In this document: positions 337 through 63,321 of the stretch, piece by piece
How the letters are laid out: the number at the start of each line of letters is the position of its first letter
Position numbering within the stretch: the stretch's first letter is position 1
Origin: Gemmatimonadales bacterium
GTDB lineage: Bacteria > Gemmatimonadota > Gemmatimonadetes > Gemmatimonadales > GWC2-71-9
Length of the DNA: 64,000 bases
Assembly (NCBI GenBank): GCA_036262935.1
Contig: DATAHW010000108.1
Span: 23,958 to 87,957 of the forward strand
Reading direction: 5' to 3'
Translations under genes and position numbers: made by a program
Notes under the pieces: generated by a model
Told to the model about the DNA's origin: nothing
The model's input: the letters and a program-made list of their open reading frames with translations, nothing else
Database searches by the model: none

Positions 337-1448
337 GGGTAGAACTCCAGGACGGCGTCGATGACGGCTTGCTGCTGCGACTCGGTCAGCTCGGGGAACA
401 CCGGCAGCGAGATGACTTGCGCCGATGCCGTTTCGCTTACCGGAAAGCTGCCCTCGCCGTAGCCGAGATGGGCGAAGCAGGGCTGCAGGTGCAGCGGCAG
501 CGGATAGTAGACCGAGCTTCCGATGCCTTTGGCGCGCAGGTGGGCCTGCAGCTCGTCCCGACGCGGCACGCGGATGGTGTACTGGTTGTAGATGTGCTCG
601 TTGGCCGGATCGGTTCGCGGCGGGCACACCGCGGGATGCGCGGCAAAGGCCTCCGTATAGCGCGCCGCGTGACGGGCCCGGGCCGCGCTCCAGCCGGCCA
701 GATGGGGCAGCTTGGCCAGCAGCACCGCGGCCTGCAGCGTATCGAGGCGGCTGTTGAATCCGACTTCGTCATGGTAGTACTGCCGGCTGCCGCCGTGCAG
801 GCGCAGGCGCCGGAGCCGCCCGGCGAGCGGCTCGTCCTGTGTCACCATCATCCCGCCGTCGCCGAAGGCCCCCAGGTTCTTGCTGGGAAAGAACGACAGC
901 GTGCCCACGGTGCCGAGCTCCCCGGCGACGCGCCACGCGCCGTCGACCTTGCGCCGCGCGCCGATCGCCTGCGCGGCATCCTCGATCAGGGCGATGCCGT
1001 GCCGCTCGGCGATCGGCACCAGCGCCTCCATGGCGGCCATCTGGCCGAAGAGGTGGACCGCGATGATCGCGCGCGTCCGGGGCGTGACCGCTGCCGCCAC
1101 CGCCGCCGGGTCGAGATTGAAGGTATCGGCCTCGATGTCCACGAACACCGGGGTCCCACCGGCGTTGTGGATGGCGCCGGCGGTGGCGAAGAAGGTGAAC
1201 GGGGTGGTGATGATCTCGTCGCCCGGCTTCAGATCGAGGGCCCGGAGCGGAAGGAGGAGGGCGTCAGTGCCGCTCGCGCACGCGATCCCGTGGGCCGCAT
1301 GCGACAGCGCGGCCACGGCGGCCTCGAGCTCCGTCACCTCGGCACCCATGATGAAGGCCTGGCGCTCGATCACGCGCATGACGGCCGCGAGCACCTCGCC
1401 CTCGACACTACGATACTGCGCCACGAGATCGAGCAGTGGTACGTTCAC
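333..1448 (-). CDS. DegT/DnrJ/EryC1/StrS-family PLP-dependent sugar aminotransferase (WbpE-like)
   Basis: 371-aa ORF starting MNVPLLDLVAQYRSVEGEVL. The whole length reads as this family (ITTPFTFFATA, SFFPSKNLGAFGDGG). It sits between a sugar dehydrogenase and a hexapeptide acetyltransferase. Confidence 0.9.
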   Translation of the reverse strand: MNVPLLDLVAQYRSVEGEVLAAVMRVIERQAFIMGAEVTELEAAVAALSHAAHGIACASGTDALLLPLRALDLKPGDEIITTPFTFFATAGAIHNAGGTPVFVDIEADTFNLDPAAVAAAVTPRTRAIIAVHLFGQMAAMEALVPIAERHGIALIEDAAQAIGARRKVDGAWRVAGELGTVGTLSFFPSKNLGAFGDGGMMVTQDEPLAGRLRRLRLHGGSRQYYHDEVGFNSRLDTLQAAVLLAKLPHLAGWSAARARHAARYTEAFAAHPAVCPPRTDPANEHIYNQYTIRVPRRDELQAHLRAKGIGSSVYYPLPLHLQPCFAHLGYGEGSFPVSETASAQVISLPVFPELTESQQQAVIDAVLEFYP

Positions 1449-1505
1449 CGGAGCGGTCCATGTGAAAGCCAGCGTTCAAGGCGGAACCCACGGCAGCCGT
1501 GCAAC

Positions 1506-13797: not shown

Positions 13798-15257
13798 AAA
13801 TCGGGACGGCGGCGGGTGTTCGACGGCTTGTCCTCGTCCGCCGGCGGGTTGCGGCGCCGCCGGGGCTCGTCCTCCGGGAGCACCCGGCCGGGCACGCCCG
13901 GCCGGCGGGGCTGTCGAACGACCGTCTGCGTTGCGGCGAAGGCCTGCAGCGAGTCCTCGAGCGCGCGGTACCCCGCCGGATCCTCGCCGCGCAGCACCGC
14001 GAGATAGGGGCTGTCCGGGTAGAGACTGTCCAGCCGCGCCCGTGCCGAGTCGACATCGGCCGGATCGAGCAGTTGCGCGGCCAGGAGCGCCTTGGGGGCG
14101 TAGGGGGAACCAGGCCACGTCTCGGCCAGGTGGCGGAACAGTCCGGCCGCGAGGGCCGGCGCGGCGAGCGTGTCCCGCGCGACCTCGGCCGCGAGAAAGA
14201 GGCGAAGGTCACCGCGCTCGACGCCGGGGCCGGTCGAGTCGCCGAGCTGGCCGAGGCGAGTGAGGGTCGCCCCAAGGGCGGTGGCTTCGGCCCCGGCGCC
14301 GTTCTCCCGCCGGGCCAGCACGGCCAGCGAGTCCGCCACCGGCGGGAGCTCGTCGAGTGTCCGGATCCGGCTCAGGGTCCGGCGCAGCAGCCGGAGCCTT
14401 GCCATGTCGGCACTCTCGCTTCGGGCCGATGCCCCCGCAGCCTCCCGGAGGCGCGCGGCCGCGGCAGCCGTATCCACGGCTTCCAGGCGGAGAGCGTCCT
14501 CGTAGAGGCGGCGCGCCCGGACTTCCGGGGTGAGCGCGGGATCGGCCTGCAGCCGACTCACCAGGGTGGAGGCGGCGCGCGGGTCCTCTCCGCCGAGCGT
14601 CACGAGCACGCTGTCCCAGACCAGGGTCGAGTCCTTCGAGGCGACCAGCGAGTCCGCCAGCGCGAACGCTTCATCCTTCCGCCCCGTACCGAGAAGGGCC
14701 AGGAGCAGGTCGCCCCGGCCGCGCGGATCAGGACTGTCGCGGAGCAGCGCCAGCGCCTCCTCGTGGTGGCCGGTGAGCCGGAGCGCGCGGGCGTGCCGGA
14801 ACCGAGCCTCGTGGCGGCGCGCCGAGTCGGGGCTGTTGATCACCCGGGCGAAGGCGATATCGGCCAGGGCGGCATCGCCCAGCTCGAGCCGGCAGCGGCC
14901 CAGGGCGAGCGCGGCCTCCTCGGCGACGTCATCCCCGAGCCCGGATGCCTGCTCGAGCCGGCCGAGTGGTTCAACCGCATTCGGGCAGTCGCCCAGACGC
15001 GCGAGCGCGAGGCCGCGCAGCACGCTCGCCTGCTCGGCGTACTTGCTCCGGGGATGGTGCGCCACGAGCGAGTCGGCGCGGGTGATCACCTGGCCCCAGA
15101 GGTTCCTGGCTTCCGACGGGCGGCCGTCCCGCTCCGCCTTGCGCGCGGACTTGGTGAGCCGGTTGGTGTTGTACATCCCGTTGTAATAGACGCAGCCACC
15201 GAGGACGAGGGTCCCGGCCAGCAACGCCAGCACGCGTGCCCGCGGCCGGCGGCTCAC
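13794..15257 (-). CDS. TPR-like repeat lipoprotein, function unknown
   Basis: GTG start gives (M)SRRPRARVLALLAGTLVLGGC (lipobox LGGC). The body is Ala/Leu/Arg-rich helical repeats. GTGA overlap with the amidase stop. The rest of the 904-aa track ORF is a different gene in another frame. Confidence 0.7.
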   Translation of the reverse strand: MSRRPRARVLALLAGTLVLGGCVYYNGMYNTNRLTKSARKAERDGRPSEARNLWGQVITRADSLVAHHPRSKYAEQASVLRGLALARLGDCPNAVEPLGRLEQASGLGDDVAEEAALALGRCRLELGDAALADIAFARVINSPDSARRHEARFRHARALRLTGHHEEALALLRDSPDPRGRGDLLLALLGTGRKDEAFALADSLVASKDSTLVWDSVLVTLGGEDPRAASTLVSRLQADPALTPEVRARRLYEDALRLEAVDTAAAAARLREAAGASARSESADMARLRLLRRTLSRIRTLDELPPVADSLAVLARRENGAGAEATALGATLTRLGQLGDSTGPGVERGDLRLFLAAEVARDTLAAPALAAGLFRHLAETWPGSPYAPKALLAAQLLDPADVDSARARLDSLYPDSPYLAVLRGEDPAGYRALEDSLQAFAATQTVVRQPRRPGVPGRVLPEDEPRRRRNPPADEDKPSNTRRRPDL

Positions 15258-27054: not shown

Positions 27055-27694
27055 TGGGAAACGCCCCGGTGAGGAAGGGATTGGTGAGGCGCTCCACACC
27101 GATCGTGGTCGCGGGGCCGTGGCCGCTGTAGACCGTGGTCGAATCGGGGAGGGAGAGGAACTGCGACTGGATGGTGGCCATCAGCGTCGCGGAGTCGCCG
27201 CCGGGGAGGTCGGTACGTCCCACCGAGCCGTTGAACAGCACGTCGCCGCCGAATACCATGTCGTGCCCGCTGAAGCTCACGCTCCCGGGCGAGTGCCCGG
27301 GCGTGAAGCGCACGTCGAACTCGAACCGGCCGACCGTGACCCGGCTCCCGGGCCGGAGCTCGACGTCGGGCGGCGGCGCGGGGTCGAGCCGCATGCCCAG
27401 CCAGGCGCCGAACTGGGGCAGCGCGTCGTAGATCGGGCGGTCGAGTGCGTGGAGATGGATCGGAACGCCGGTGGCCTGCTTGACGGCGCCCACACCCATG
27501 ATGTGGTCGATGTGGGCGTGGGTGAGCCACACCGCCCGCAGAGTCCAGGCGCGCGTGTCGAGCTCGGCGAGGAACATCGCGGGCTCCTCGCCGGGATCGA
27601 TGAGCACCGCCTCGCGGGTCCCGCGGTCGGCCACCAGATAGCAGTTCTGGGCGAACTGCCCATTGGGCAGCGCCACCACCTCCAGCTCAGACAC
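27047..27694 (-). CDS. MBL-fold metallo-hydrolase, glyoxalase II (hydroxyacylglutathione hydrolase)-like
   Basis: 215 aa with THAHIDHIMG (HxHxDH), TPGHSPGS and GRTDLPGGD motifs. Confidence 0.88.
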   Translation of the reverse strand: MSELEVVALPNGQFAQNCYLVADRGTREAVLIDPGEEPAMFLAELDTRAWTLRAVWLTHAHIDHIMGVGAVKQATGVPIHLHALDRPIYDALPQFGAWLGMRLDPAPPPDVELRPGSRVTVGRFEFDVRFTPGHSPGSVSFSGHDMVFGGDVLFNGSVGRTDLPGGDSATLMATIQSQFLSLPDSTTVYSGHGPATTIGVERLTNPFLTGAFPIG

Positions 27695-28649
27695 CGACGC
27701 TCGCCCCCGGCACTCCGCTCTTCCGGGCCTTGAGAAACTTCTCCACCGCGATGGCGGCGGTGGTGGCGTCGCCCACTGCGGTGGTCACCTGGCGGGTGAG
27801 CTGCATCCGGAGGTCGCCTGCCGCGAACAGGCCGGGGATGGAGGTCATCATCCGCTCATCGGTGATGATGTAGCCGCTCGGGTCGTGGTCCACATGCTGG
27901 GTCACGAGGCCGGTGTTGGGCCGGAACCCGATGAAGATGAAGCACCCGCTCACCTTGAGCGCGAGCTCCTCGCCGGTCACGGTATCCACCATCTCGATCC
28001 ACTCGAGGCCGGCGGGACCGCCCTTGAGCTCGCGCACCCGCTTGTTCCAGATCACCTCGATCTTCGGGTTCGCGAACAGCCGCTCCTGCAGGATCTTCGA
28101 TGCCCGGAACTCGTCCCGGCGGTGGATGACGTACACCTTCTCCGCGTAGCGCGAGAGGTACTCGGCCTCCTCCACGGCCGCGTCGCCGCCGCCGACCACC
28201 GCGATCGTCTCACCCTTGAAGAAGGCGCCGTCGCACACGGCGCAATAGGACACGCCCCGGCCGGCGTACTCGTACTCGCCCGGGACCTCGAGCTTGTAGG
28301 GAGTGCCGCCGGCGGTGAGGATCACCGTCGGGGCTTCGTAAGTGGTGCCACCCGACGTGACCACCTCGAAGATGCCGTCCTCGCGCCGCGCGATGGATTC
28401 CACGTGCTCCTGCCGGATGTCGGCGCCGAACGCGATCGCGTGCGCGGTCATCTTCTGGGCCAGCTCCCGCCCGAGGATGTGCTCGAAGCCCGGGTAGTCA
28501 TCGACCCACTCGGTGTTCAGCAGCTCGCCACCGGGCACGCCCCGCTCCAGCAGGGCGGCCTTGAGCATCCCGCGGCCGGCGTACATGGCCGCGCAAAGGC
28601 CGGCCGGGCCGGCGCCGACGATGATCAGCTCGAACTCCTCGGTACTCAT
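27687..28649 (-). CDS. trxB: thioredoxin-disulfide reductase
   Basis: From the ATG at 28649: ELIIVGAGPAGLCAAMYA, redox centre CAVCDG, VVGGGDAAVEEA and GLFAAGD motifs. 320 aa. Confidence 0.92.
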   Translation of the reverse strand: MSTEEFELIIVGAGPAGLCAAMYAGRGMLKAALLERGVPGGELLNTEWVDDYPGFEHILGRELAQKMTAHAIAFGADIRQEHVESIARREDGIFEVVTSGGTTYEAPTVILTAGGTPYKLEVPGEYEYAGRGVSYCAVCDGAFFKGETIAVVGGGDAAVEEAEYLSRYAEKVYVIHRRDEFRASKILQERLFANPKIEVIWNKRVRELKGGPAGLEWIEMVDTVTGEELALKVSGCFIFIGFRPNTGLVTQHVDHDPSGYIITDERMMTSIPGLFAAGDLRMQLTRQVTTAVGDATTAAIAVEKFLKARKSGVPGASVGV

Positions 28650-28702
28650 CCGATGCCCCGTGTGTGGTTGGGTCAAATATAGAACAGGCGGGGGTTCCCG
28701 TC

Positions 28703-29473
28703 TCAGGCCGGCGCACCCGGCGAGGGACCGAGGTGAAGCAGGCTCGCCGCACCGTGGCAGGCGGAGACGGTGCCGACGAGCACGTCCGTCGGCATTCCCG
28801 CCTCGCCCGCTTCGGCCACCACCCGGTCGCCGTGAAGGACCGTGCCCACGTCGAACATCCCGACGCCGTACACCCGGTGCCGGCAGGTGAAGAGCACCGG
28901 ACCCGCCGTCCGGCGGACGGCATCGAGCCGCCGGGCCAGCGCCTCCATGGCGTCGCCCATTTCCCAGCTCCGCGGCGCGCGGATCACCGGGCAGACCGCG
29001 GGCTCGACGCAGTGGGTGGGGCAGAGCCAATCGGCGAAGGAGACGTACCGGGTGCCGTCCGGCGCCTGGACGTCGTACGGCGTGCCGGGTCCGAGCGGCA
29101 CCGGCCTGGGCTCGACCAGGCGTCCGGGCCAGCGAGCCCGGGCCCGCCGGAGCAGCCACTCGTACATGAGGTGCGGCATGAGGGGAGAGGGCACGATCGC
29201 ATCGGGTGGATCCGACGCCGGGGCCGCCCCGGCCAGGTATCGGTCGAAGAAGCCGCCCCACTCCGCCACTACCAGCTCGGTGCCATCGGCCGCCGCACGC
29301 TCCGCGGCGAAGCGGCAACCGGGGTCGCGATCCACCACGAGCAGGCGGCGCCACGTCGCGCTGCCGCGCTCGCGGGCCCGGAGGAGCTGGCGGGCGTAAA
29401 AGCTCCCGTAGCATCCGCCGCCCACGATGACGACATCGCCCAGCGCGACGCTAGCGGAGGAGGCGTCCGCCAT
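28703..29473 (-). CDS. hypothetical protein with an N-terminal Rossmann-type dinucleotide motif and a Cys-rich core
   Basis: 256 aa with good GC3. Motifs: VVIVGGGCYGSFYARQLL, then WLCPTHCVEPAVCPVIRAPRSW, FTCRH and SACHGA. No family recognised. It overlaps the upstream SDR stop by 23 nt. Confidence 0.65.
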   Translation of the reverse strand: MADASSASVALGDVVIVGGGCYGSFYARQLLRARERGSATWRRLLVVDRDPGCRFAAERAAADGTELVVAEWGGFFDRYLAGAAPASDPPDAIVPSPLMPHLMYEWLLRRARARWPGRLVEPRPVPLGPGTPYDVQAPDGTRYVSFADWLCPTHCVEPAVCPVIRAPRSWEMGDAMEALARRLDAVRRTAGPVLFTCRHRVYGVGMFDVGTVLHGDRVVAEAGEAGMPTDVLVGTVSACHGAASLLHLGPSPGAPA

Positions 29474-30182
29474 CGACCACCAGGACGTCGCCGGTCACGA
29501 AGTCGCCCCCCTCGAGCAGGTAGAGGAGCGCGGCGATCGCATCGGCGGGCTGCCCCAGGCGGCGCAGCGGAGTCGTGCGGGCCAGCCGATCGCGCTCGTC
29601 CCGGTCGTACTCCTCGGGCACGAGCACGGCGCCCGGCGCGATGGCGTTGACGGTCACATCCGGCGCGAGCGCCTTCGCGAGCACCCGGGTGAGCATCACC
29701 ACGCCCGCCTTGGCGACCGAGTGCGCCGCGAAGCCGGGCCAGGGCTCGAGCCCGGCCAGGTCGGCCATGTTGACGACCTTGCCACGCGCCGCGCGCAGGG
29801 CCGGCGCCGCGCCCTGGGTGCAGAAGAAGACCGAGCGCAGGTTGAGGTCGAGTACCTCGTCGTACTCCGCGGGGGTGGTGTCCTCGAACGACCGGCGGCG
29901 CATGACGGCGGCCGAATTGACCAGCACGTCGAGCCGCCCCAGCTCGGCGACCACCCGGCGCGGAAGCTCGGCCGCCGCCGTGGCGTCGGTCAGGTCGGCG
30001 GCGAAGCAGGCGGCCTGCCCGCCGGCGGCCACGATCTCGTCGCGCAGCGCGTCGGCGCCGGCCGAGGACGCGTGATGATGGATAGCCAGAGTCATCCCGC
30101 GGCCTGCCAGGGCCCGCGCCATGGCCCGGCCGAGCCGGCGGCCGGCTCCGGTGACGAGAGCGGCGCGACCGGCCAGCTCCAT
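29451..30182 (-). CDS. short-chain dehydrogenase/reductase (SDR)
   Basis: ALVTGAGRRLGRAMA (TGxxxxxG) and HSVAKAG (YxxxK variant) in a classical SDR layout. Confidence 0.85.
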   Translation of the reverse strand: MELAGRAALVTGAGRRLGRAMARALAGRGMTLAIHHHASSAGADALRDEIVAAGGQAACFAADLTDATAAAELPRRVVAELGRLDVLVNSAAVMRRRSFEDTTPAEYDEVLDLNLRSVFFCTQGAAPALRAARGKVVNMADLAGLEPWPGFAAHSVAKAGVVMLTRVLAKALAPDVTVNAIAPGAVLVPEEYDRDERDRLARTTPLRRLGQPADAIAALLYLLEGGDFVTGDVLVVDGGRLLR

Positions 30183-30916
30183 CAGGCGGCGCGAGGCGCG
30201 ATCCGCAGGATCACGCCGGTAGGCGCGTCGGGCCCCGACAGGGCGAGCGAGAGCACGCCCTTGGTGAGATCCTCCATCTCCACGTAGTCCGCTTCCTCTC
30301 CCGCGCTGGCGACGTTGTCGCCGGTCCGCGCCATGCTCGGCGCCACCGCGTTGACCCGCACGTGGCGATCCGCCAGCTCGACGGCCAGGCTCCGCGTGAA
30401 ACCCGCGACCGCCGCCTTGGCGGCCGAGTAGACGGCCATGGGGCTCTGCGGCTCGAAGTAGGCGATGGACGCGAAGTTCACAATGACTCCCTGAGTCTCC
30501 GTGAGCGAGGCGATCGCCGCCTGGGAGACGAGCACCGTGGTCTTGAGATTGATCGCCAGCTCGCGGTCGATGTCCTTCACCGTGAGCCGCTCGACCGGGC
30601 CGTACGTCGTGAGCCCGCCCGCCACATTCACCACCACGTCGAGCCGGCCGAAATCGCGGAGGGCCACCTCGACGGCCAGCGCCGCCATGTCGGGCTGCGT
30701 CAGGTCGCCGGCGCAGGGCCGGGCGTCCACGCCGAGCGCCGCGAACTCGCGCACGCGCTGGGTGACGCCCACCGCGTTCACGTCGCAGGCTACGAGGCGC
30801 GCGCCGGCCTGGCCCAATGCCAGCGCCACGGCGTTGCCGATCTGCCCCGCGCGTCCCACCCCCGTCACCAGGGCCACTTTGCCGCTGAAATCGAACGCCG
30901 CCGGACTCATGCTCAC
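30182..30916 (-). CDS. short-chain dehydrogenase/reductase (SDR)
   Basis: VALVTGVGRAGQIGNAVA, NVAGG and YSAAKAAV (YxxxK) motifs. The start is GTG 30916 (GTGA overlap) or ATG 30910. Confidence 0.85.
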   Translation of the reverse strand: MSMSPAAFDFSGKVALVTGVGRAGQIGNAVALALGQAGARLVACDVNAVGVTQRVREFAALGVDARPCAGDLTQPDMAALAVEVALRDFGRLDVVVNVAGGLTTYGPVERLTVKDIDRELAINLKTTVLVSQAAIASLTETQGVIVNFASIAYFEPQSPMAVYSAAKAAVAGFTRSLAVELADRHVRVNAVAPSMARTGDNVASAGEEADYVEMEDLTKGVLSLALSGPDAPTGVILRIAPRAA

Positions 30917-31353
30917 CTCAGGGCTTCGAGAACGATCTCCGCACCGGGCGCGCCGGACTGACTGTAGGCGACGGTGCCATCGCGCTCGATCAATACGACC
31001 GAGCGGGCGATCGTCGCGCCGTCCGGCCGCACGGCGCCGTACGCCCTGGCCACCGCCAGCCCGGGATCGGAGAGGAGCGGAAACGGCAGGCGCAGGCGAA
31101 CGGCGTAGTCGGCATGACGGGCGGCCGGGGCGGGATTGACGCCGAAGGGCCGGACCTGATGACGCTCGAACAACGGCATGTCGTCGCGCACGGCGGACAA
31201 CTGGCGGTTTCAGCCGGGGGTATCGTTCCCCGGGTAGAACACGAGGAGCACCCGGGAGAGCTCGAGCAGCTCGCGCAGCCGGTAGACGCGGCCGTCCGAC
31301 GCGTCGGCGGAGAACTCCGGCGCTACGCTCCCGGGCGGAAGCAGCCGGCTCAC
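30913..31353 (-). CDS. Bcp/AhpC-TSA-family peroxiredoxin with an in-frame TGA at the peroxidatic-Cys codon (candidate selenoprotein; alternatively a pseudogene)
   Basis: Track ORFs 31210..31989 (C-terminus ...LPPGSVAPEFSADASDGRVYRLRELLELSRVLLVFYPGNDTPG stop) and 30913..31200 (SAVRDDMPLFERHQVRPFGVNPA...LPFPLLSDPG...VVLIERDG) are in the same frame. They are separated only by TGA AAC CGC CAG. The TGA (31210-31212) falls where the family has YPxxxTPGC. The GTG start at 31353 is in GTGA overlap with the PHP gene stop. Confidence 0.6.
31179..31199 (-). promoter_or_regulatory. candidate bacterial SECIS-like hairpin downstream of the in-frame UGA
   Basis: In the mRNA, with U of UGA as 1: U14-A34, G15-C33, U16-A32, C17-G31, a bulge (A29, C30), then C18-G28, G19-C27, C20-G26, and apical loop CGUGC containing GU. 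The hairpin starts 10 nt after UGA. Hand-folded only. Confidence 0.3.
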
Positions 31354-32213
31354 GGGCCGACCGACGCCGGGAGCCCCGCGCGCCGTGTCTCGAGCTGCTC
31401 GAGCCACTCGAGCGGTACCTGCTGCGAGCCCAGCGGGTCGTGGCTCTCTCCGGGGCCGGGATCGCCGTGCCAGTCGCTGCCGCCCGTCCGGAGCAGCCCG
31501 AGCCCCAGGGTCGAGTTGGTCAGTCGCGTCCGGAGATCCGGGTCGTGGCTGGGGTGGCGGGTCTCGACCGCGTCGAGCCCCTCGCCCCGAAGCCGCTCCA
31601 GAAACGCGCGCGTGCCGCGCTCCTTGAGGTGGGCCACGGAGACGACGCCACGGACGGAGTGCACCAGCTCGGCGATCTCCCGGAACGCGGGAAGGACCTT
31701 CTCCACGAACGCGGGCCGATGCCGGCCCAGAAAGCGGTCGAACGCCTCCGAGACATCGCGCGCGCCGCCCTGCCGGACGACGGCACGCGCGACGTGCGGC
31801 CGCCCGACCGCGCCGCCCGCCGCCTCGTCGAGCACGTGATCGAATTCGAGCGGGACGCCGAGCGCCTGGAGGCGGGCCACCATCTCCCGGGCCCGCCGCA
31901 CCCGGTCGGTACGGGAGCGCACGAGGAACGACTCCAGCTCGGGCGAGTGCGTGGGCAGAAAGTAGCCCAGCACGTGCATCTCGCCCCACGGCGCGGCGGA
32001 GCTGAACTCGCAGCCCCCGACCACGCGCACCCCCAGGCGCTCGCCGGCCAGGAGCGCGCCGGGGACACCCGCGACCGTGTCATGGTCGGTGAGCGCCACG
32101 GCGGCGAGACCCGCCGCGCGCGCGCGCTCGACCACGGCCTGCGGCGGCAGGCTTCCGTCGGAGGCGGTCGAGTGCACGTGAAGGTCCACGAAGCCGGCCG
32201 CGGACGTGCCCAC
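31350..32213 (-). CDS. PHP-domain phosphoesterase (TrpH/YciV-like)
   Basis: FVDLHVHSTASDGS, ALTDHDTVAG, RPHVARA and GGSDWHG motifs. The start is taken as GTG 32213. A CTG at 32222 overlaps the upstream TGA. Confidence 0.8.
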   Translation of the reverse strand: MGTSAAGFVDLHVHSTASDGSLPPQAVVERARAAGLAAVALTDHDTVAGVPGALLAGERLGVRVVGGCEFSSAAPWGEMHVLGYFLPTHSPELESFLVRSRTDRVRRAREMVARLQALGVPLEFDHVLDEAAGGAVGRPHVARAVVRQGGARDVSEAFDRFLGRHRPAFVEKVLPAFREIAELVHSVRGVVSVAHLKERGTRAFLERLRGEGLDAVETRHPSHDPDLRTRLTNSTLGLGLLRTGGSDWHGDPGPGESHDPLGSQQVPLEWLEQLETRRAGLPASVGP

Positions 32214-32218
32214 GGCGG

Positions 32219-32485
32219 TCAGCGGCGGTACCCCAGCTCGGGAGAAGTCCAGGACGGCTGGGAATGGGCCAGGAGCTCCCGCAGCTCCCGATCGCTCATC
32301 CGGCCCAGCGACAGCTCTCGGCTCTTGGCGCCGAGCGGACTGTAGCGCACGACGCGCCGCTCGCGGTCCGGGCCGATGCCACGGCTGAAGACGAGCCCGA
32401 ACTCGTCCTTCGTGTACTGGGTGATCCGCCCGCTGACCGCGACCTCCCACTGGTCGCCGTCCACCTCGATCATCCGTCTCGGCAT
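32219..32485 (-). CDS. small conserved-looking hypothetical protein (88 aa)
   Basis: MPRRMIEVDGDQWEVAVSGRITQYTKDEFGLVFSRG... has balanced composition and high GC3. It lies between E2 and the PHP gene on the same strand. No family recognised. Confidence 0.55.
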   Translation of the reverse strand: MPRRMIEVDGDQWEVAVSGRITQYTKDEFGLVFSRGIGPDRERRVVRYSPLGAKSRELSLGRMSDRELRELLAHSQPSWTSPELGYRR

Positions 32486-62174: not shown

Positions 62175-62636
62175 CTACTGAAGCGCGCGCAGCTGCTCGA
62201 GGAGCTCCGCGTTTTCCCGGCGCGTACTCGGGGTGGTCTCGGCATACGTCCACCGGACCACGCCGTTCCGGTCGATCAGGACGTACGCCCGGTTGGAGAA
62301 GAACTTGTCTTCCAGCAGCGTCCCGTACCGCCGGCTCACGTCCCGCTTGAAGTCGCTGAGCAAGTCCAGCGTCATCCGCTCCTTGGCCTTGAACTCCTTC
62401 AACGTGGGTACGGAGTCCACGCTGATGGGAAGCACGACCGTGTTGGCGTCCTGGAACTGCGAATAATCATCAGAGAGCGCGCACATCTCGCTGGTGCACG
62501 TCTTGGTAAAGGCGAGCGGGAAGAACGCCAGCAGCACGTTCCGGCCGCGCAACCGGGACAGCGTCACGTCCGTGCCGGCCGTGGATGGCAGCGTGAAGTC
62601 GGGTGCGGGCGAGCCAACGGCGGGGAGCGCGGCCAT
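62175..62636 (-). CDS. peroxiredoxin (AhpC/TSA-redoxin family, Cys-type)
   Basis: From the ATG at 62636: VGSPAPDFTLPSTAGTDVTLSRLRGRNVLLAFFPLAFTKTCTSEMC with an intact peroxidatic Cys. 153 aa. Confidence 0.85.
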   Translation of the reverse strand: MAALPAVGSPAPDFTLPSTAGTDVTLSRLRGRNVLLAFFPLAFTKTCTSEMCALSDDYSQFQDANTVVLPISVDSVPTLKEFKAKERMTLDLLSDFKRDVSRRYGTLLEDKFFSNRAYVLIDRNGVVRWTYAETTPSTRRENAELLEQLRALQ

Positions 62637-62641
62637 GGCGA

Positions 62642-63259
62642 TCAGGCTTTGCCGGCGCGGTCGAAGCGCCGCCCGATGTCGGTCCAGTTGACCACGTTCC
62701 ACCAGGCGGCGACGTAGTCCGGGCGCCGGTTCTGGTATTTGAGGTAGTACGCGTGCTCCCACACGTCGCAGCCCAGGATCGGCTTCTTGCCGCTCATCAG
62801 CGGGGAATCCTGGTTGGGGGTGCTCTCGATGGAGAGGGCGCCGTTCCGATCGGCCACCAGCCAGCCCCACCCGCTCCCGAACCGTCCGCCGCACGCCTTC
62901 GCGAACTGTTCCTGGAACTGCGCGAACCCGCCGAAGCTCTTCGTGATCGCGTCCGCGAGCGCACCGGCGGGCTGTTTGGCGCCGCCGGGGGCCATCATCT
63001 CCCAGAACATCGTGTGGTTCGCGTGACCGCCGCCGTTGTTCCGGACCGCGGTCCGGATGCCCTCGGGCACCGCGTCCAGGTTGCCGACCAGCTCTTCGAC
63101 GGACTTCTTCTGCAGGTCGGGGTGGGACTCGAGGGCGGTGTTCAGGTTGTTCACGTAGGCGGCGTGGTGCTTGTCGTGGTGGATCCGCATGGTCTGCTCG
63201 TCGATGTGCGGCTCCAGCGCGTTGTACGGGTACGGGAGGGGGGGAAGGGTAAACGCCAT
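62642..63259 (-). CDS. Fe/Mn superoxide dismutase
   Basis: From the ATG at 63259: [36 protein letters not shown]...GGGHANH...[18 protein letters not shown] is canonical. 205 aa. The metal type is not resolved. Confidence 0.95.
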
Positions 63260-63321
63260 GACTGACTCCTCAGGCTGAAAGCTGCTGAATTCCGAACGAC
63301 TTACTCGGCTCAAGCGAGCGA

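Follow-up and report, generated by a model that had tools for sequence, protein, structure and literature searches.

The locus lies on the minus strand of the window (the whole 64-kb stretch of DNA that was analysed), where a peroxiredoxin (Prx) gene of 146 codons, interrupted by one in-frame TGA, sits between a phosphoesterase gene and two dehydrogenase genes. The gene, its active-site codons and its neighbours are as follows.

30913..31353, minus strand: putative selenocysteine (Sec) peroxiredoxin gene, complete, AhpC/TSA family, 146 residues, starting at GTG 31353..31351 and ending at a TGA of its own, 30915..30913
31212..31210, minus strand: in-frame UGA, predicted to be read as Sec (U48), the peroxidatic residue of P-x-x-x-T-P-G-U
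31219..31221, minus strand: codon of the active-site Thr (T45) of the T-x-x-U motif, aligned to the Thr of AhpE
31003..31005, minus strand: codon of the active-site Arg (R117), an invariant column in homologue alignments, aligned to the Arg of AhpE
31350..32210, minus strand: upstream gene for a PHP-domain phosphoesterase (start approximate; Pfam PHP, E 7.8e-12)
29451..30916, minus strand: two downstream short-chain dehydrogenase (SDR) genes (Pfam adh_short, E 4e-42 and 1e-43), syntenic in relatives
27687..28649, minus strand: trxB, thioredoxin-disulfide reductase with a CAVC active site (TIGR01292, 365 bits against a cut-off of 343)

The TGA stop of the PHP gene overlaps the GTG start of the peroxiredoxin gene within the GTGA at 31350-31353, and this arrangement was syntenic in all relatives, in Sec and Cys forms alike; in the orthologue of one relative (L002), an ATG stands at the position of the window gene's start codon. 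The SDR genes are closely packed behind the peroxiredoxin stop. The first-pass annotation had described GTGA overlaps on both sides of the gene. Both are present; the one at 30913-30916 involves a possible SDR start, and in relatives this SDR gene is called from an ATG 3 nt after the stop instead. The same annotation placed the gene in a redox operon with trxB, and here the identity of trxB was confirmed; it lies four genes downstream on the same strand with conserved synteny. Co-transcription of the two genes is uncertain, given an intergenic gap ahead of trxB that contains a weak terminator-like hairpin (28702-28683). The second peroxiredoxin of the window (62175-62636, minus strand) does use Cys, as had been stated, in the motif FTKTC.

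Reading frame and protein family

Translation of the minus-strand frame 31353..30913 gave VSRLLPPGSVAPEFSADASDGRVYRLRELLELSRVLLVFYPGNDTPG, followed by the stop codon and then by NRQLSAVRDD...VVLIERDG...EALR up to the terminal stop. The TGA at 31212..31210 is the sole internal stop in this frame (context TPG-U-NRQL). With this stop replaced by Cys, the frame matched Pfam AhpC-TSA at E 3.7e-27 (95.2 bits against a cut-off of 26, residues 8-130 of 146) and scored 65 bits with the Redoxin profile, which bears out the earlier proposal of one peroxiredoxin of ~146 aa split by a single TGA. The active-site motif P-x-x-x-T-x-x-C(U) is present, reading YPGNDTPG-U, together with the conserved Arg. T45 was Thr in every one of the 54 distinct Sec sequences and almost without exception among Cys homologues, and the U48 codon aligned with the Cys of AhpE in solved structures. 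That the TGA falls exactly at the peroxidatic Cys was likewise correct: homologues carry Cys at that column, and syntenic orthologues have TGC.

The assignment to the Bcp type had to be narrowed. Scores with the NCBIfam models for Bcp (NF006960; 58.9 against a cut-off of 140), PrxQ (NF053650; 49.8 against 260) and PrxU (NF040737; 31.2 against 270) were all under the curated cut-offs, and by this measure the protein is none of these three equivalogs. The resolving Cys of the Bcp/PrxQ 2-Cys type (C-x-x-x-x-C) was not found in the window protein, which reads U-NRQL-S at this site, and its translation held no Cys residue anywhere. Judged by its residues, the protein is of the 1-Cys (here 1-Sec) type. 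'Bcp-type' is therefore valid only in the sense of the broad COG1225 group, because no equivalog cut-off was reached, the resolving Cys is missing, and the closest solved relative is the 1-Cys enzyme AhpE.

Conservation of the TGA and of the downstream hairpin

The equivalent codon is also TGA in 61 related loci, which represent 56 distinct sequences, down to ~49% protein identity, in assemblies drawn from JGI, ENA, Logan and NCBI; this recurrence at one codon is therefore far beyond chance. The TGA form was present in 27 of 28 Gemmatimonadota species genomes, and the near-complete genomes that carry it include GCA_035699205.1, GCA_036769285.1 and the MAG of the 1.16-Mb contig CAWHMT010000002.1; QHUU01, DATNOR01 and the MAG of SHZT01000001.1 carry it as well. 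Gene callers break the gene of relatives into 47 aa and 88-95 aa. Among the 120 best homologue clusters, 77 were C-terminal fragments of 88-95 aa with 78-98% identity, while the remaining 43 were full length and carried T-x-G-C in 41 cases. The equivalent codon was TGC in loci L036, L037, L066 and L120-L125; assemblies with the Cys form include GCA_038207935.1, GCA_039924155.1, GCA_049680185.1 and JBBSEY01. These Cys forms were regarded as orthologues because their gene neighbourhood (E1/E2, PHP, Prx, SDR, AF_1314_C, TrxB, MBL) is the same as that of the Sec forms.

Entropy at codon positions 1/2/3 was 0.70/0.64/1.29 upstream of the TGA and 0.76/0.70/1.30 downstream, a periodicity which indicates that both halves of the gene are evolving as coding sequence. 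No additional stop was found among 55 distinct sequences of the Sec-form gene. The gene had been described as something other than a decaying pseudogene, and retention of the TGA in 61 loci, free of further disruptions, agrees with that description. Other in-frame TGA candidates in the window were set aside as ordinary gene ends with the next gene in frame, or as non-coding frames.

The sequence 3' of the UGA contains a conserved element with the following parts.

31198..31180, minus strand: conserved SECIS-like hairpin of 19 nt, nt +15 to +33 from the U of the UGA (RNAalifold)
31198..31193, minus strand: 5' arm of the hairpin
31192..31188, minus strand: apical loop CGUGC
31187..31180, minus strand: 3' arm, with a 2-nt bulge at 31184..31183
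31184..31197, minus strand: invariant 14-nt core UCCGCCGUGCGCGA, which takes in the third positions of one Ser, one Ala, one Val and one Arg codon, all four-fold degenerate

RNAalifold and a separate pair count converged on this one hairpin, which is set off from the UGA by a spacer of 11 nt. Its cells were paired in 98.8% of cases, compared to 14-60% in slid controls. The hairpin that the first-pass annotation had drawn at 31179-31199 exists, but only 31198..31180 is conserved; the seventh pair, U-A, occurs in the window sequence only and lies outside the conserved part. The closing pair switched between G-C (14 sequences) and C-G (12 sequences). Covariation was confined to one base pair, for which the tree suggests one or two change events. 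In L034, the helix is re-registered to 7 bp without a bulge, and the loop is unchanged. An alternative register with a CGU triloop and a bulged C27 was thermodynamically about as probable; it was rejected as the consensus, its outer pair 15-30 being broken in most sequences and L034 favouring the register with the CGUGC loop.

Across 54 distinct sequences, codons +5 to +8 had a third-position entropy of 0, and every conserved four-fold site beyond codons -1 to +8 had 0.98-1.83 bits. The 14-nt core occurs once in the window. It was altered in the Cys orthologues L120, L124, L125 and L036, and Cys orthologues that retain the same peptide NRQLSAVRDD showed synonymous changes in the core (TCG, GTA, CGT) and had lost the closing pair. 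This pattern of substitutions indicates that the hairpin is under selection at the nucleotide level, and that this selection is relaxed in the Cys orthologues.

The bacterial SECIS model requires an apical loop of 3-9 nt with a G within the first two positions, usually followed by G or U, on an upper stem of 4-16 bp, with a UGA-to-loop distance of 16-37 nt and a minimum free energy no higher than -7.5 kcal/mol (PMC13188914). The geometry of the hairpin agrees with this model: it has a 5-nt loop with G then U at loop positions 2-3, a 6-bp stem with a 2-nt bulge, and 17 nt between UGA and loop. Its predicted stability is weak: the short hairpin alone had a mean energy of -4.1 kcal/mol, and of the 55 sequences only 36 had a 48-nt window that reached -7.5 kcal/mol. 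By the same calculation, the mini-hairpin of E. coli fdhF came to -4.2 kcal/mol. A search of the whole window against Rfam at gathering thresholds, together with a permissive search of 30900-31400, returned no SECIS family and only a tRNA-Leu and a chance miRNA-like match.

A second selenoprotein candidate was encountered in the related loci. An AhpD-like gene reading CRY-TGA (CxxU), unrelated to Prx, lies 2-5 kb from the Sec-Prx gene in six related Gemmatimonadota genomes and has a predicted hairpin of its own (-29 kcal/mol in L048, -22 kcal/mol in L054). This gene carries Cys in exactly those loci whose Prx is a Cys form; two further Cys loci that were checked gave no additional case of such a joint switch. 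The AhpD-like gene is absent from the window. The two genes do not form a two-gene selenoprotein operon, because at least five genes separate them.

Decoding of the UGA and alternative readings

The reading favoured here, at a probability of about 90%, is that the gene encodes a one-selenocysteine peroxiredoxin whose UGA is decoded via the downstream hairpin. This supports the selenoprotein interpretation of the first-pass annotation, all of whose predictions at the level of sequence were borne out. The UGA at 31212..31210 would not be taken as a stop during translation; instead, the hairpin 11 nt past it, with G22-U23 exposed in the CGUGC loop, would bind SelB carrying Sec-tRNA(Sec), and SelB would insert Sec at the peroxidatic position of T-P-G-U. 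The resulting selenolate, held in a pocket with Thr45 and Arg117, would reduce peroxides and be converted to a selenenic acid, which a thiol from outside the protein may then recycle; thioredoxin, itself reduced by the nearby TrxB, would most likely be the donor. The parts of this scheme that I infer are the need for SelB and tRNA-Sec, the incorporation of selenium, the activity as a peroxidase and the choice of reductant.

With SelD, SelB and part of SelA from E. coli K-12 as tblastn queries, no selA, selB or selD was found in the 64-kb window or in the ~10 kb flanks of related loci, and ARAGORN likewise called no tRNA-Sec for the window or for any Gemmatimonadota locus. As the DNA covered represents a few percent of each genome, this absence neither supports nor refutes the use of Sec. 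The only tRNA-SeC calls came from an unrelated Thermaerobacter contig (L073). The literature searched contained no paper that describes the use of Sec by Gemmatimonadota (Gemmatimonadetes) or by Gemmatimonas.

The best-surviving alternative, itself very improbable, is that the UGA is read through without Sec, the hairpin stimulating near-cognate or suppressor decoding (as Cys, Trp or Gly) to give a selenium-free full-length enzyme. Such readthrough would fit the failure to detect Sec machinery in the window or the ~10 kb flanks, as well as a hairpin that falls short of the energy threshold in the published bSECIS model. However, the recoded site is the redox-active Cys of the orthologues, which is a signature of Sec rather than of generic readthrough, and the spacing and G-U loop match the SelB-dependent fdhF element. 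The co-occurrence of a CxxU gene with its own hairpin, which turns to Cys jointly with the Prx gene, also argues against readthrough of this kind, and if Cys were the residue inserted, a TGA would be pointless compared to TGC, yet it is kept in 56 distinct sequences.

The view that the TGA is a true stop, whether in a pseudogene, through an error of sequencing or assembly, or between two small proteins of 47 aa and about 92-95 aa, is effectively refuted by sequence comparison. It agrees with the automatic annotation, which gives two fragments in all public records, and a TTG or GTG start is available downstream of the TGA; yet these 'start' codons vary among relatives, most of them fall within the hairpin loop, and either fragment would be missing the catalytic residue. 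An error would not be expected to recur as the same TGA in 61 loci that were assembled independently and sequenced on independent platforms. Nor would an inactivating mutation persist across ~50% protein divergence with the adjacent synonymous sites frozen, and the 55 distinct sequences showed no other disruption and coding periodicity in both halves. A genetic code in which UGA is sense everywhere, for which nothing speaks except the in-frame TGA itself, is refuted by the usage of TGA in the window, as this codon terminates 36 of 49 coding-like ORFs (including the peroxiredoxin gene and both its neighbours), so that there is no genome-wide reassignment, and the 64 kb gave no second in-frame TGA with coding sequence both before and after it.

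Returning to the decoding of the UGA as Sec, this residue is probably ancestral for the Gemmatimonadota orthologue group, with repeated Sec-to-Cys reversions, because a single hairpin sequence is common to all Sec forms, and an approximate tree places the Cys forms on several distinct branches. A bolder version holds that the Sec form is ancestral and nearly universal for this Prx across Gemmatimonadota, a mostly aerobic soil phylum, and that it is decoded by a SECIS of ~19 nt with a 14-nt invariant core, thermodynamically weaker than the accepted bacterial model, with repeated reversions to Cys. This version is tentative, and I would rate it at slightly under an even chance. If true, it would mean that a lineage-specific SelB recognises the element largely by its sequence, and the reversions would have left natural orthologue pairs and 'fossil' hairpins behind.

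These results point to a lineage of Sec peroxiredoxins from soil bacteria that is routinely mis-annotated as two fragments. A clade of antioxidant enzymes in abundant soil bacteria would thereby be invisible to automated pipelines, because records split the gene and no NCBIfam model reaches its cut-off. The finding also points to Sec decoding in many Gemmatimonadota. The syntenic pairs of Sec and Cys orthologues may help in studying which advantage Sec gives a peroxiredoxin and why it has been lost repeatedly, and the minimal conserved SECIS-like hairpin, with its fdhF-like 11-nt spacer, is a compact candidate for studies of SelB recognition or for engineering.

Relation to known selenoproteins and peroxiredoxins

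Sec peroxiredoxins with a TxxU motif are already established, the window gene belongs to this known kind, and the known picture of bacterial selenoprotein function is unchanged. The family (COG1225/PF00578, motif TxxU) includes PrxU of Eubacterium acidaminophilum (Sohling et al.). The window gene shares with this family the Pfam domain, Sec (as predicted here) at the peroxidatic site within T-x-x-U, widespread Cys homologues, and a hairpin within the coding sequence 3' of the UGA. The window protein differs from the family in scoring below the PrxU, Bcp and PrxQ cut-offs, in being without a resolving Cys and in coming from the lineage Gemmatimonadota. Its SECIS-like hairpin is unusually short for the family, with a core that is invariant in sequence, whereas Sec-Prx genes of other phyla (L069, L071, L100 and L105) have different and stronger hairpins. 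Clusters of Prx-like and AhpD-like selenoprotein genes have been reported in metagenomes (PMC13188914, PMC1088965), and the six related Gemmatimonadota loci with a CRY-TGA gene near Sec-Prx resemble the AhpD-like (CxxU) selenoproteins in this respect.

The element of E. coli fdhF (formate dehydrogenase H, UGA140), taken from the E. coli genome, has the same 11-nt spacer as the window hairpin, a G-U in a small apical loop (G23-U24 in fdhF, G22-U23 in the window) and a small bulge in the upper stem. In fdhF one U bulges out on the 5' side, but in the window hairpin 2 nt do so on the 3' side, and fdhF forms a fold of ~40 nt at -14.9 kcal/mol, whereas the window hairpin has no conserved lower stem.

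Among solved structures, the best match to the protein was the 1-Cys peroxiredoxin AhpE of Mycobacterium tuberculosis (Rv2238c; PDB 1XVW, 4X1U; E 1.4e-14, residues 2-137), followed by archaeal and bacterial Bcp (3DRN, 2CX3). The AhpE and Bcp structures alike aligned across residues 2-137, and their Thr, Cys and Arg fell in register with the window protein. Both AhpE and the window protein have a single catalytic chalcogen residue, no resolving Cys, and Thr and Arg in register. The match is a distant one (E about 1e-14), AhpE uses Cys instead of the Sec predicted here, and its active-site loop reads PLAFTGIC, compared to PGNDTPGU in the window protein.

A peroxiredoxin gene with an in-frame TGA

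The minus-strand gene at 31353..30913 is a single frame of 147 codons, interrupted solely by the TGA at 31212..31210 and ended by its own terminal TGA at 30915..30913. With Cys replacing the internal stop, the 146-residue product matched Pfam AhpC-TSA (E 3.7e-27, residues 8-130) and also Redoxin, and the internal TGA occupied the peroxidatic position in Y-P-G-N-D-T-P-G-[U]-N-R-Q-L; frame, TGA position and family were thus correctly described in the first-pass annotation. The nearest solved structures by sequence were M. tuberculosis 1-Cys AhpE and archaeal Bcp proteins (E about 1e-14, residues 2-137), with the active-site Thr, Cys and Arg in register in these alignments, and the protein is of the 1-Cys type because it has no other Cys. 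The earlier label 'Bcp-type' holds for the broad group but not as an equivalog, as the product scored below the NCBIfam equivalog cut-offs for Bcp (59 vs 140), PrxQ (50 vs 260) and PrxU (31 vs 270). The original observation is confirmed and its interpretation as a selenoprotein is supported; I consider it very likely (roughly 0.9) that this peroxiredoxin gene is truly decoded with Sec.

DNA of relatives was drawn from NCBI MAGs, JGI, ENA and Logan assemblies, and from a GTDB-based collection at one genome per species. Among the 120 best homologue clusters, 77 were C-terminal fragments (88-95 residues, 78-98% identity), which are genes started after the TGA by gene callers, while the other 43 were full length at 52-67% identity and carried T-x-G-C in 41 cases. 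A TGA at the peroxidatic codon was found in 61 loci (56 distinct sequences) with protein identity down to about 49%; these include 27 of the 28 species genomes that the collection gave for Gemmatimonadota. The ortholog alignment proposed as a check showed Cys (TGC) at the Sec column in the related loci L036, L037, L066 and L120-L125. These Cys forms are orthologues, since they share their gene neighbourhood with the Sec forms (2-oxoacid dehydrogenase E1/E2, PHP, peroxiredoxin, SDR, AF_1314_C-like, TrxB, MBL hydrolase). Judged from these alignments, the TGA is conserved and not accidental.

Across 55 distinct TGA sequences, entropy at codon positions 1, 2 and 3 was 0.70, 0.64 and 1.29 upstream of the TGA and 0.76, 0.70 and 1.30 downstream of it, a periodicity that, as a sequence pattern, points to purifying selection on both sides and to halves translated in one frame. 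None of the 55 contained further in-frame stops, a result that is partly due to filter construction downstream of the TGA but not upstream. A reassigned genetic code is excluded, as TGA ends 36 of the 49 coding-like ORFs in the window (70.6% G+C), the peroxiredoxin gene and its neighbours included, and no second in-frame TGA with coding sequence on both flanks was found there. A pseudogene, a sequencing error and a split gene are each excluded by the periodicity, the stop-free frame and the TGA stop usage combined, and these same data require local, context-dependent recoding.

A small conserved hairpin after the UGA

Third-position entropy was assessed at 30 conserved four-fold-degenerate codon columns in 54 distinct full-length Sec sequences. 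It was 0.98-1.83 bits at all sites outside a block from codon -1 to codon +8, counted from the UGA, and exactly zero at codons +5 to +8 (TCC GCC GTG CGC). The window has a single copy of the resulting 14-nt core, UCCGCCGUGCGCGA (31197..31184). RNAalifold, run on 27 sequences, predicted a hairpin at nt +15..+33 from the U of the UGA (31198..31180, minus strand) with 3 + 3 bp, a 2-nt A-Y bulge between them and the loop CGUGC, which recovers the hairpin first noticed in the sequence; by pair count on this structure, 98.8% of cells were paired, compared with 14-60% for slid controls.

The closing pair was G-C (n=14) or C-G (n=12), and this covariation probably represents one or two events, because every G-C sequence fell into one clade of an approximate neighbour-joining tree. 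A hint of second, independent structural support came from the related locus L034, where two substitutions re-register the helix into a bulge-free 7-bp stem of -10.1 kcal/mol with an unchanged loop. The conserved hairpin is thermodynamically weak (mean -4.1 kcal/mol), and a second possible register, containing a CGU triloop, has about equal thermodynamic probability; comparative data favour the CGUGC register. Three Cys orthologues keep the peptide NRQLSAVRDD: L120 has the core codons TCG and GTA, L124 has TCG and CGT, and L066 retains the core with the closing pair lost, which looks like a recent 'fossil'. The strongest argument for a putative RNA element is this freezing of synonymous sites and their thawing in Cys orthologues with the same peptide. 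Rfam gave no match to the element. Public calls of the C-terminal fragment mostly begin at a GTG within the hairpin loop.

Gene neighbourhood and a second candidate

The peroxiredoxin start and the stop codon of a PHP-domain phosphoesterase gene overlap in the sequence GTGA, and the peroxiredoxin gene is followed on the same strand by two SDR genes, an AF_1314_C-like gene, thioredoxin-disulfide reductase (TrxB; TIGR01292, 365 bits vs cut-off 343) and an MBL-fold hydrolase, a gene order conserved in Sec and Cys relatives. Of the redox operon with trxB proposed earlier, the synteny stands and co-transcription is uncertain, because trxB is preceded by an intergenic gap that contains a weak terminator-like hairpin and may be transcribed separately. 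I infer that thioredoxin/TrxB is the reductant.

Other features of the window, all on the minus strand
28683-28702: weak terminator-like hairpin between the AF_1314_C-like gene and trxB
28703-29473: conserved 256-residue protein between the SDR genes and trxB; no match in Pfam or NCBIfam scans, precomputed PF27252 (AF_1314_C) match for orthologues in relatives
32219-32485: conserved 88-residue ORF between the 2-oxoacid dehydrogenase E2 and PHP genes; no Pfam match, unannotated 86-88-residue gene in its place in most related loci
62175-62636: second peroxiredoxin, Cys-type as annotated earlier (FTKTC...C; AhpC-TSA E 3e-35)
62642-63313: ORF directly upstream of the second peroxiredoxin, resembling Fe/Mn superoxide dismutase by eye only

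The last two would form a separate antioxidant pair.

Sec machinery genes usually lie elsewhere in the genome, and neither the window nor the DNA up to about 10 kb from the gene in the related loci contained selA, selB, selD or tRNA-Sec. ARAGORN called two tRNA-SeC genes on L073, a 2.2-kb Thermaerobacter MAG contig, at 1237-1331 (+) and 1379-1473 (-). They lie next to a Cys-type Bcp gene, on opposite strands and separated by about 50 nt, and may be a true pair or two calls of a single palindromic region. A further call, 'tRNA-???' at L001:10980-11073 with gcag as its 4-nt anticodon, falls within a glycosyltransferase gene of a related MAG and is probably spurious.

A scan of the DNA flanking the gene in related loci, for other TGAs that interrupt a coding frame, revealed an AhpD-like/YciW-related (CMD-domain) selenoprotein candidate with a CxxU motif (...NRCRY-[TGA]-LxSH...), located 2-5 kb from the Sec peroxiredoxin in six Gemmatimonadota genomes (L043, L045, L046, L047, L048, L054) and absent from the window.

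AhpD-like genes in related loci
L048:14917-15459: TGA at 15163; predicted hairpin after it, -29 kcal/mol
L054:14644-15186: TGA at 14890; predicted hairpin after it, -22 kcal/mol
L066:6870-7388: Cys version, CAYC read directly
L120:14127-14663: Cys version, uninterrupted 178-residue CMD-domain gene called; likewise L121
L124:14109-14645: Cys version, uninterrupted 178-residue CMD-domain gene called

The AhpD-like gene has Cys in exactly the loci with a Cys peroxiredoxin (L066, L120/L121, L124), with no discordant loci, as expected if both UGAs depended on a genome-level trait lost in one lineage. This co-switch is suggestive and not statistical, because the Cys-Cys loci form one clade in the approximate neighbour-joining tree.

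Comparison with known selenoproteins and SECIS elements

TxxU peroxiredoxins (COG1225/PF00578) are an established bacterial selenoprotein family, and AhpD-like CxxU selenoproteins are already known (PMC9312934, PMC13188914, PMC1088965). No report of Sec use in Gemmatimonadota turned up in a literature search; what is new is the lineage, the very small SECIS with its invariant sequence, and the pattern of repeated Sec-to-Cys reversion. The finding is of practical use for annotation and of some interest for SECIS biology, and would not surprise a specialist.

The same genome scan returned Sec peroxiredoxins from Thermodesulfobacteriota, Ignavibacteriales, Acidobacteriota and Myxococcales MAGs, with the peroxidatic-codon TGA at the following positions.

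Peroxidatic-codon TGA in peroxiredoxins of other phyla
L069:1230
L071:4842
L100:10130
L105:3823

Each of their hairpins differs from the Gemmatimonadota element and is stronger (-10 to -21 kcal/mol). The bacterial SECIS model has a loop of 3-9 nt with G within its first two nucleotides and, as a rule, G or U after it, an upper stem of 4-16 bp, a UGA-loop distance of 16-37 nt and an MFE <= -7.5 kcal/mol (PMC13188914). The peroxiredoxin element agrees with this model in every respect other than energy, where the result is mixed: the hairpin alone averages -4.1 kcal/mol, and 48-nt windows reach -7.5 in 36 of 55 sequences. The E. coli fdhF mini-hairpin alone gives -4.2 in the same calculation. The fdhF-like geometry proposed from the sequence was borne out: in fdhF (K-12 genome) 11 nt separate the UGA from the mini-hairpin, which begins at nt 15 and presents G23-U24 in its loop; spacer length and first nucleotide are identical in the peroxiredoxin hairpin, whose loop carries G22-U23.
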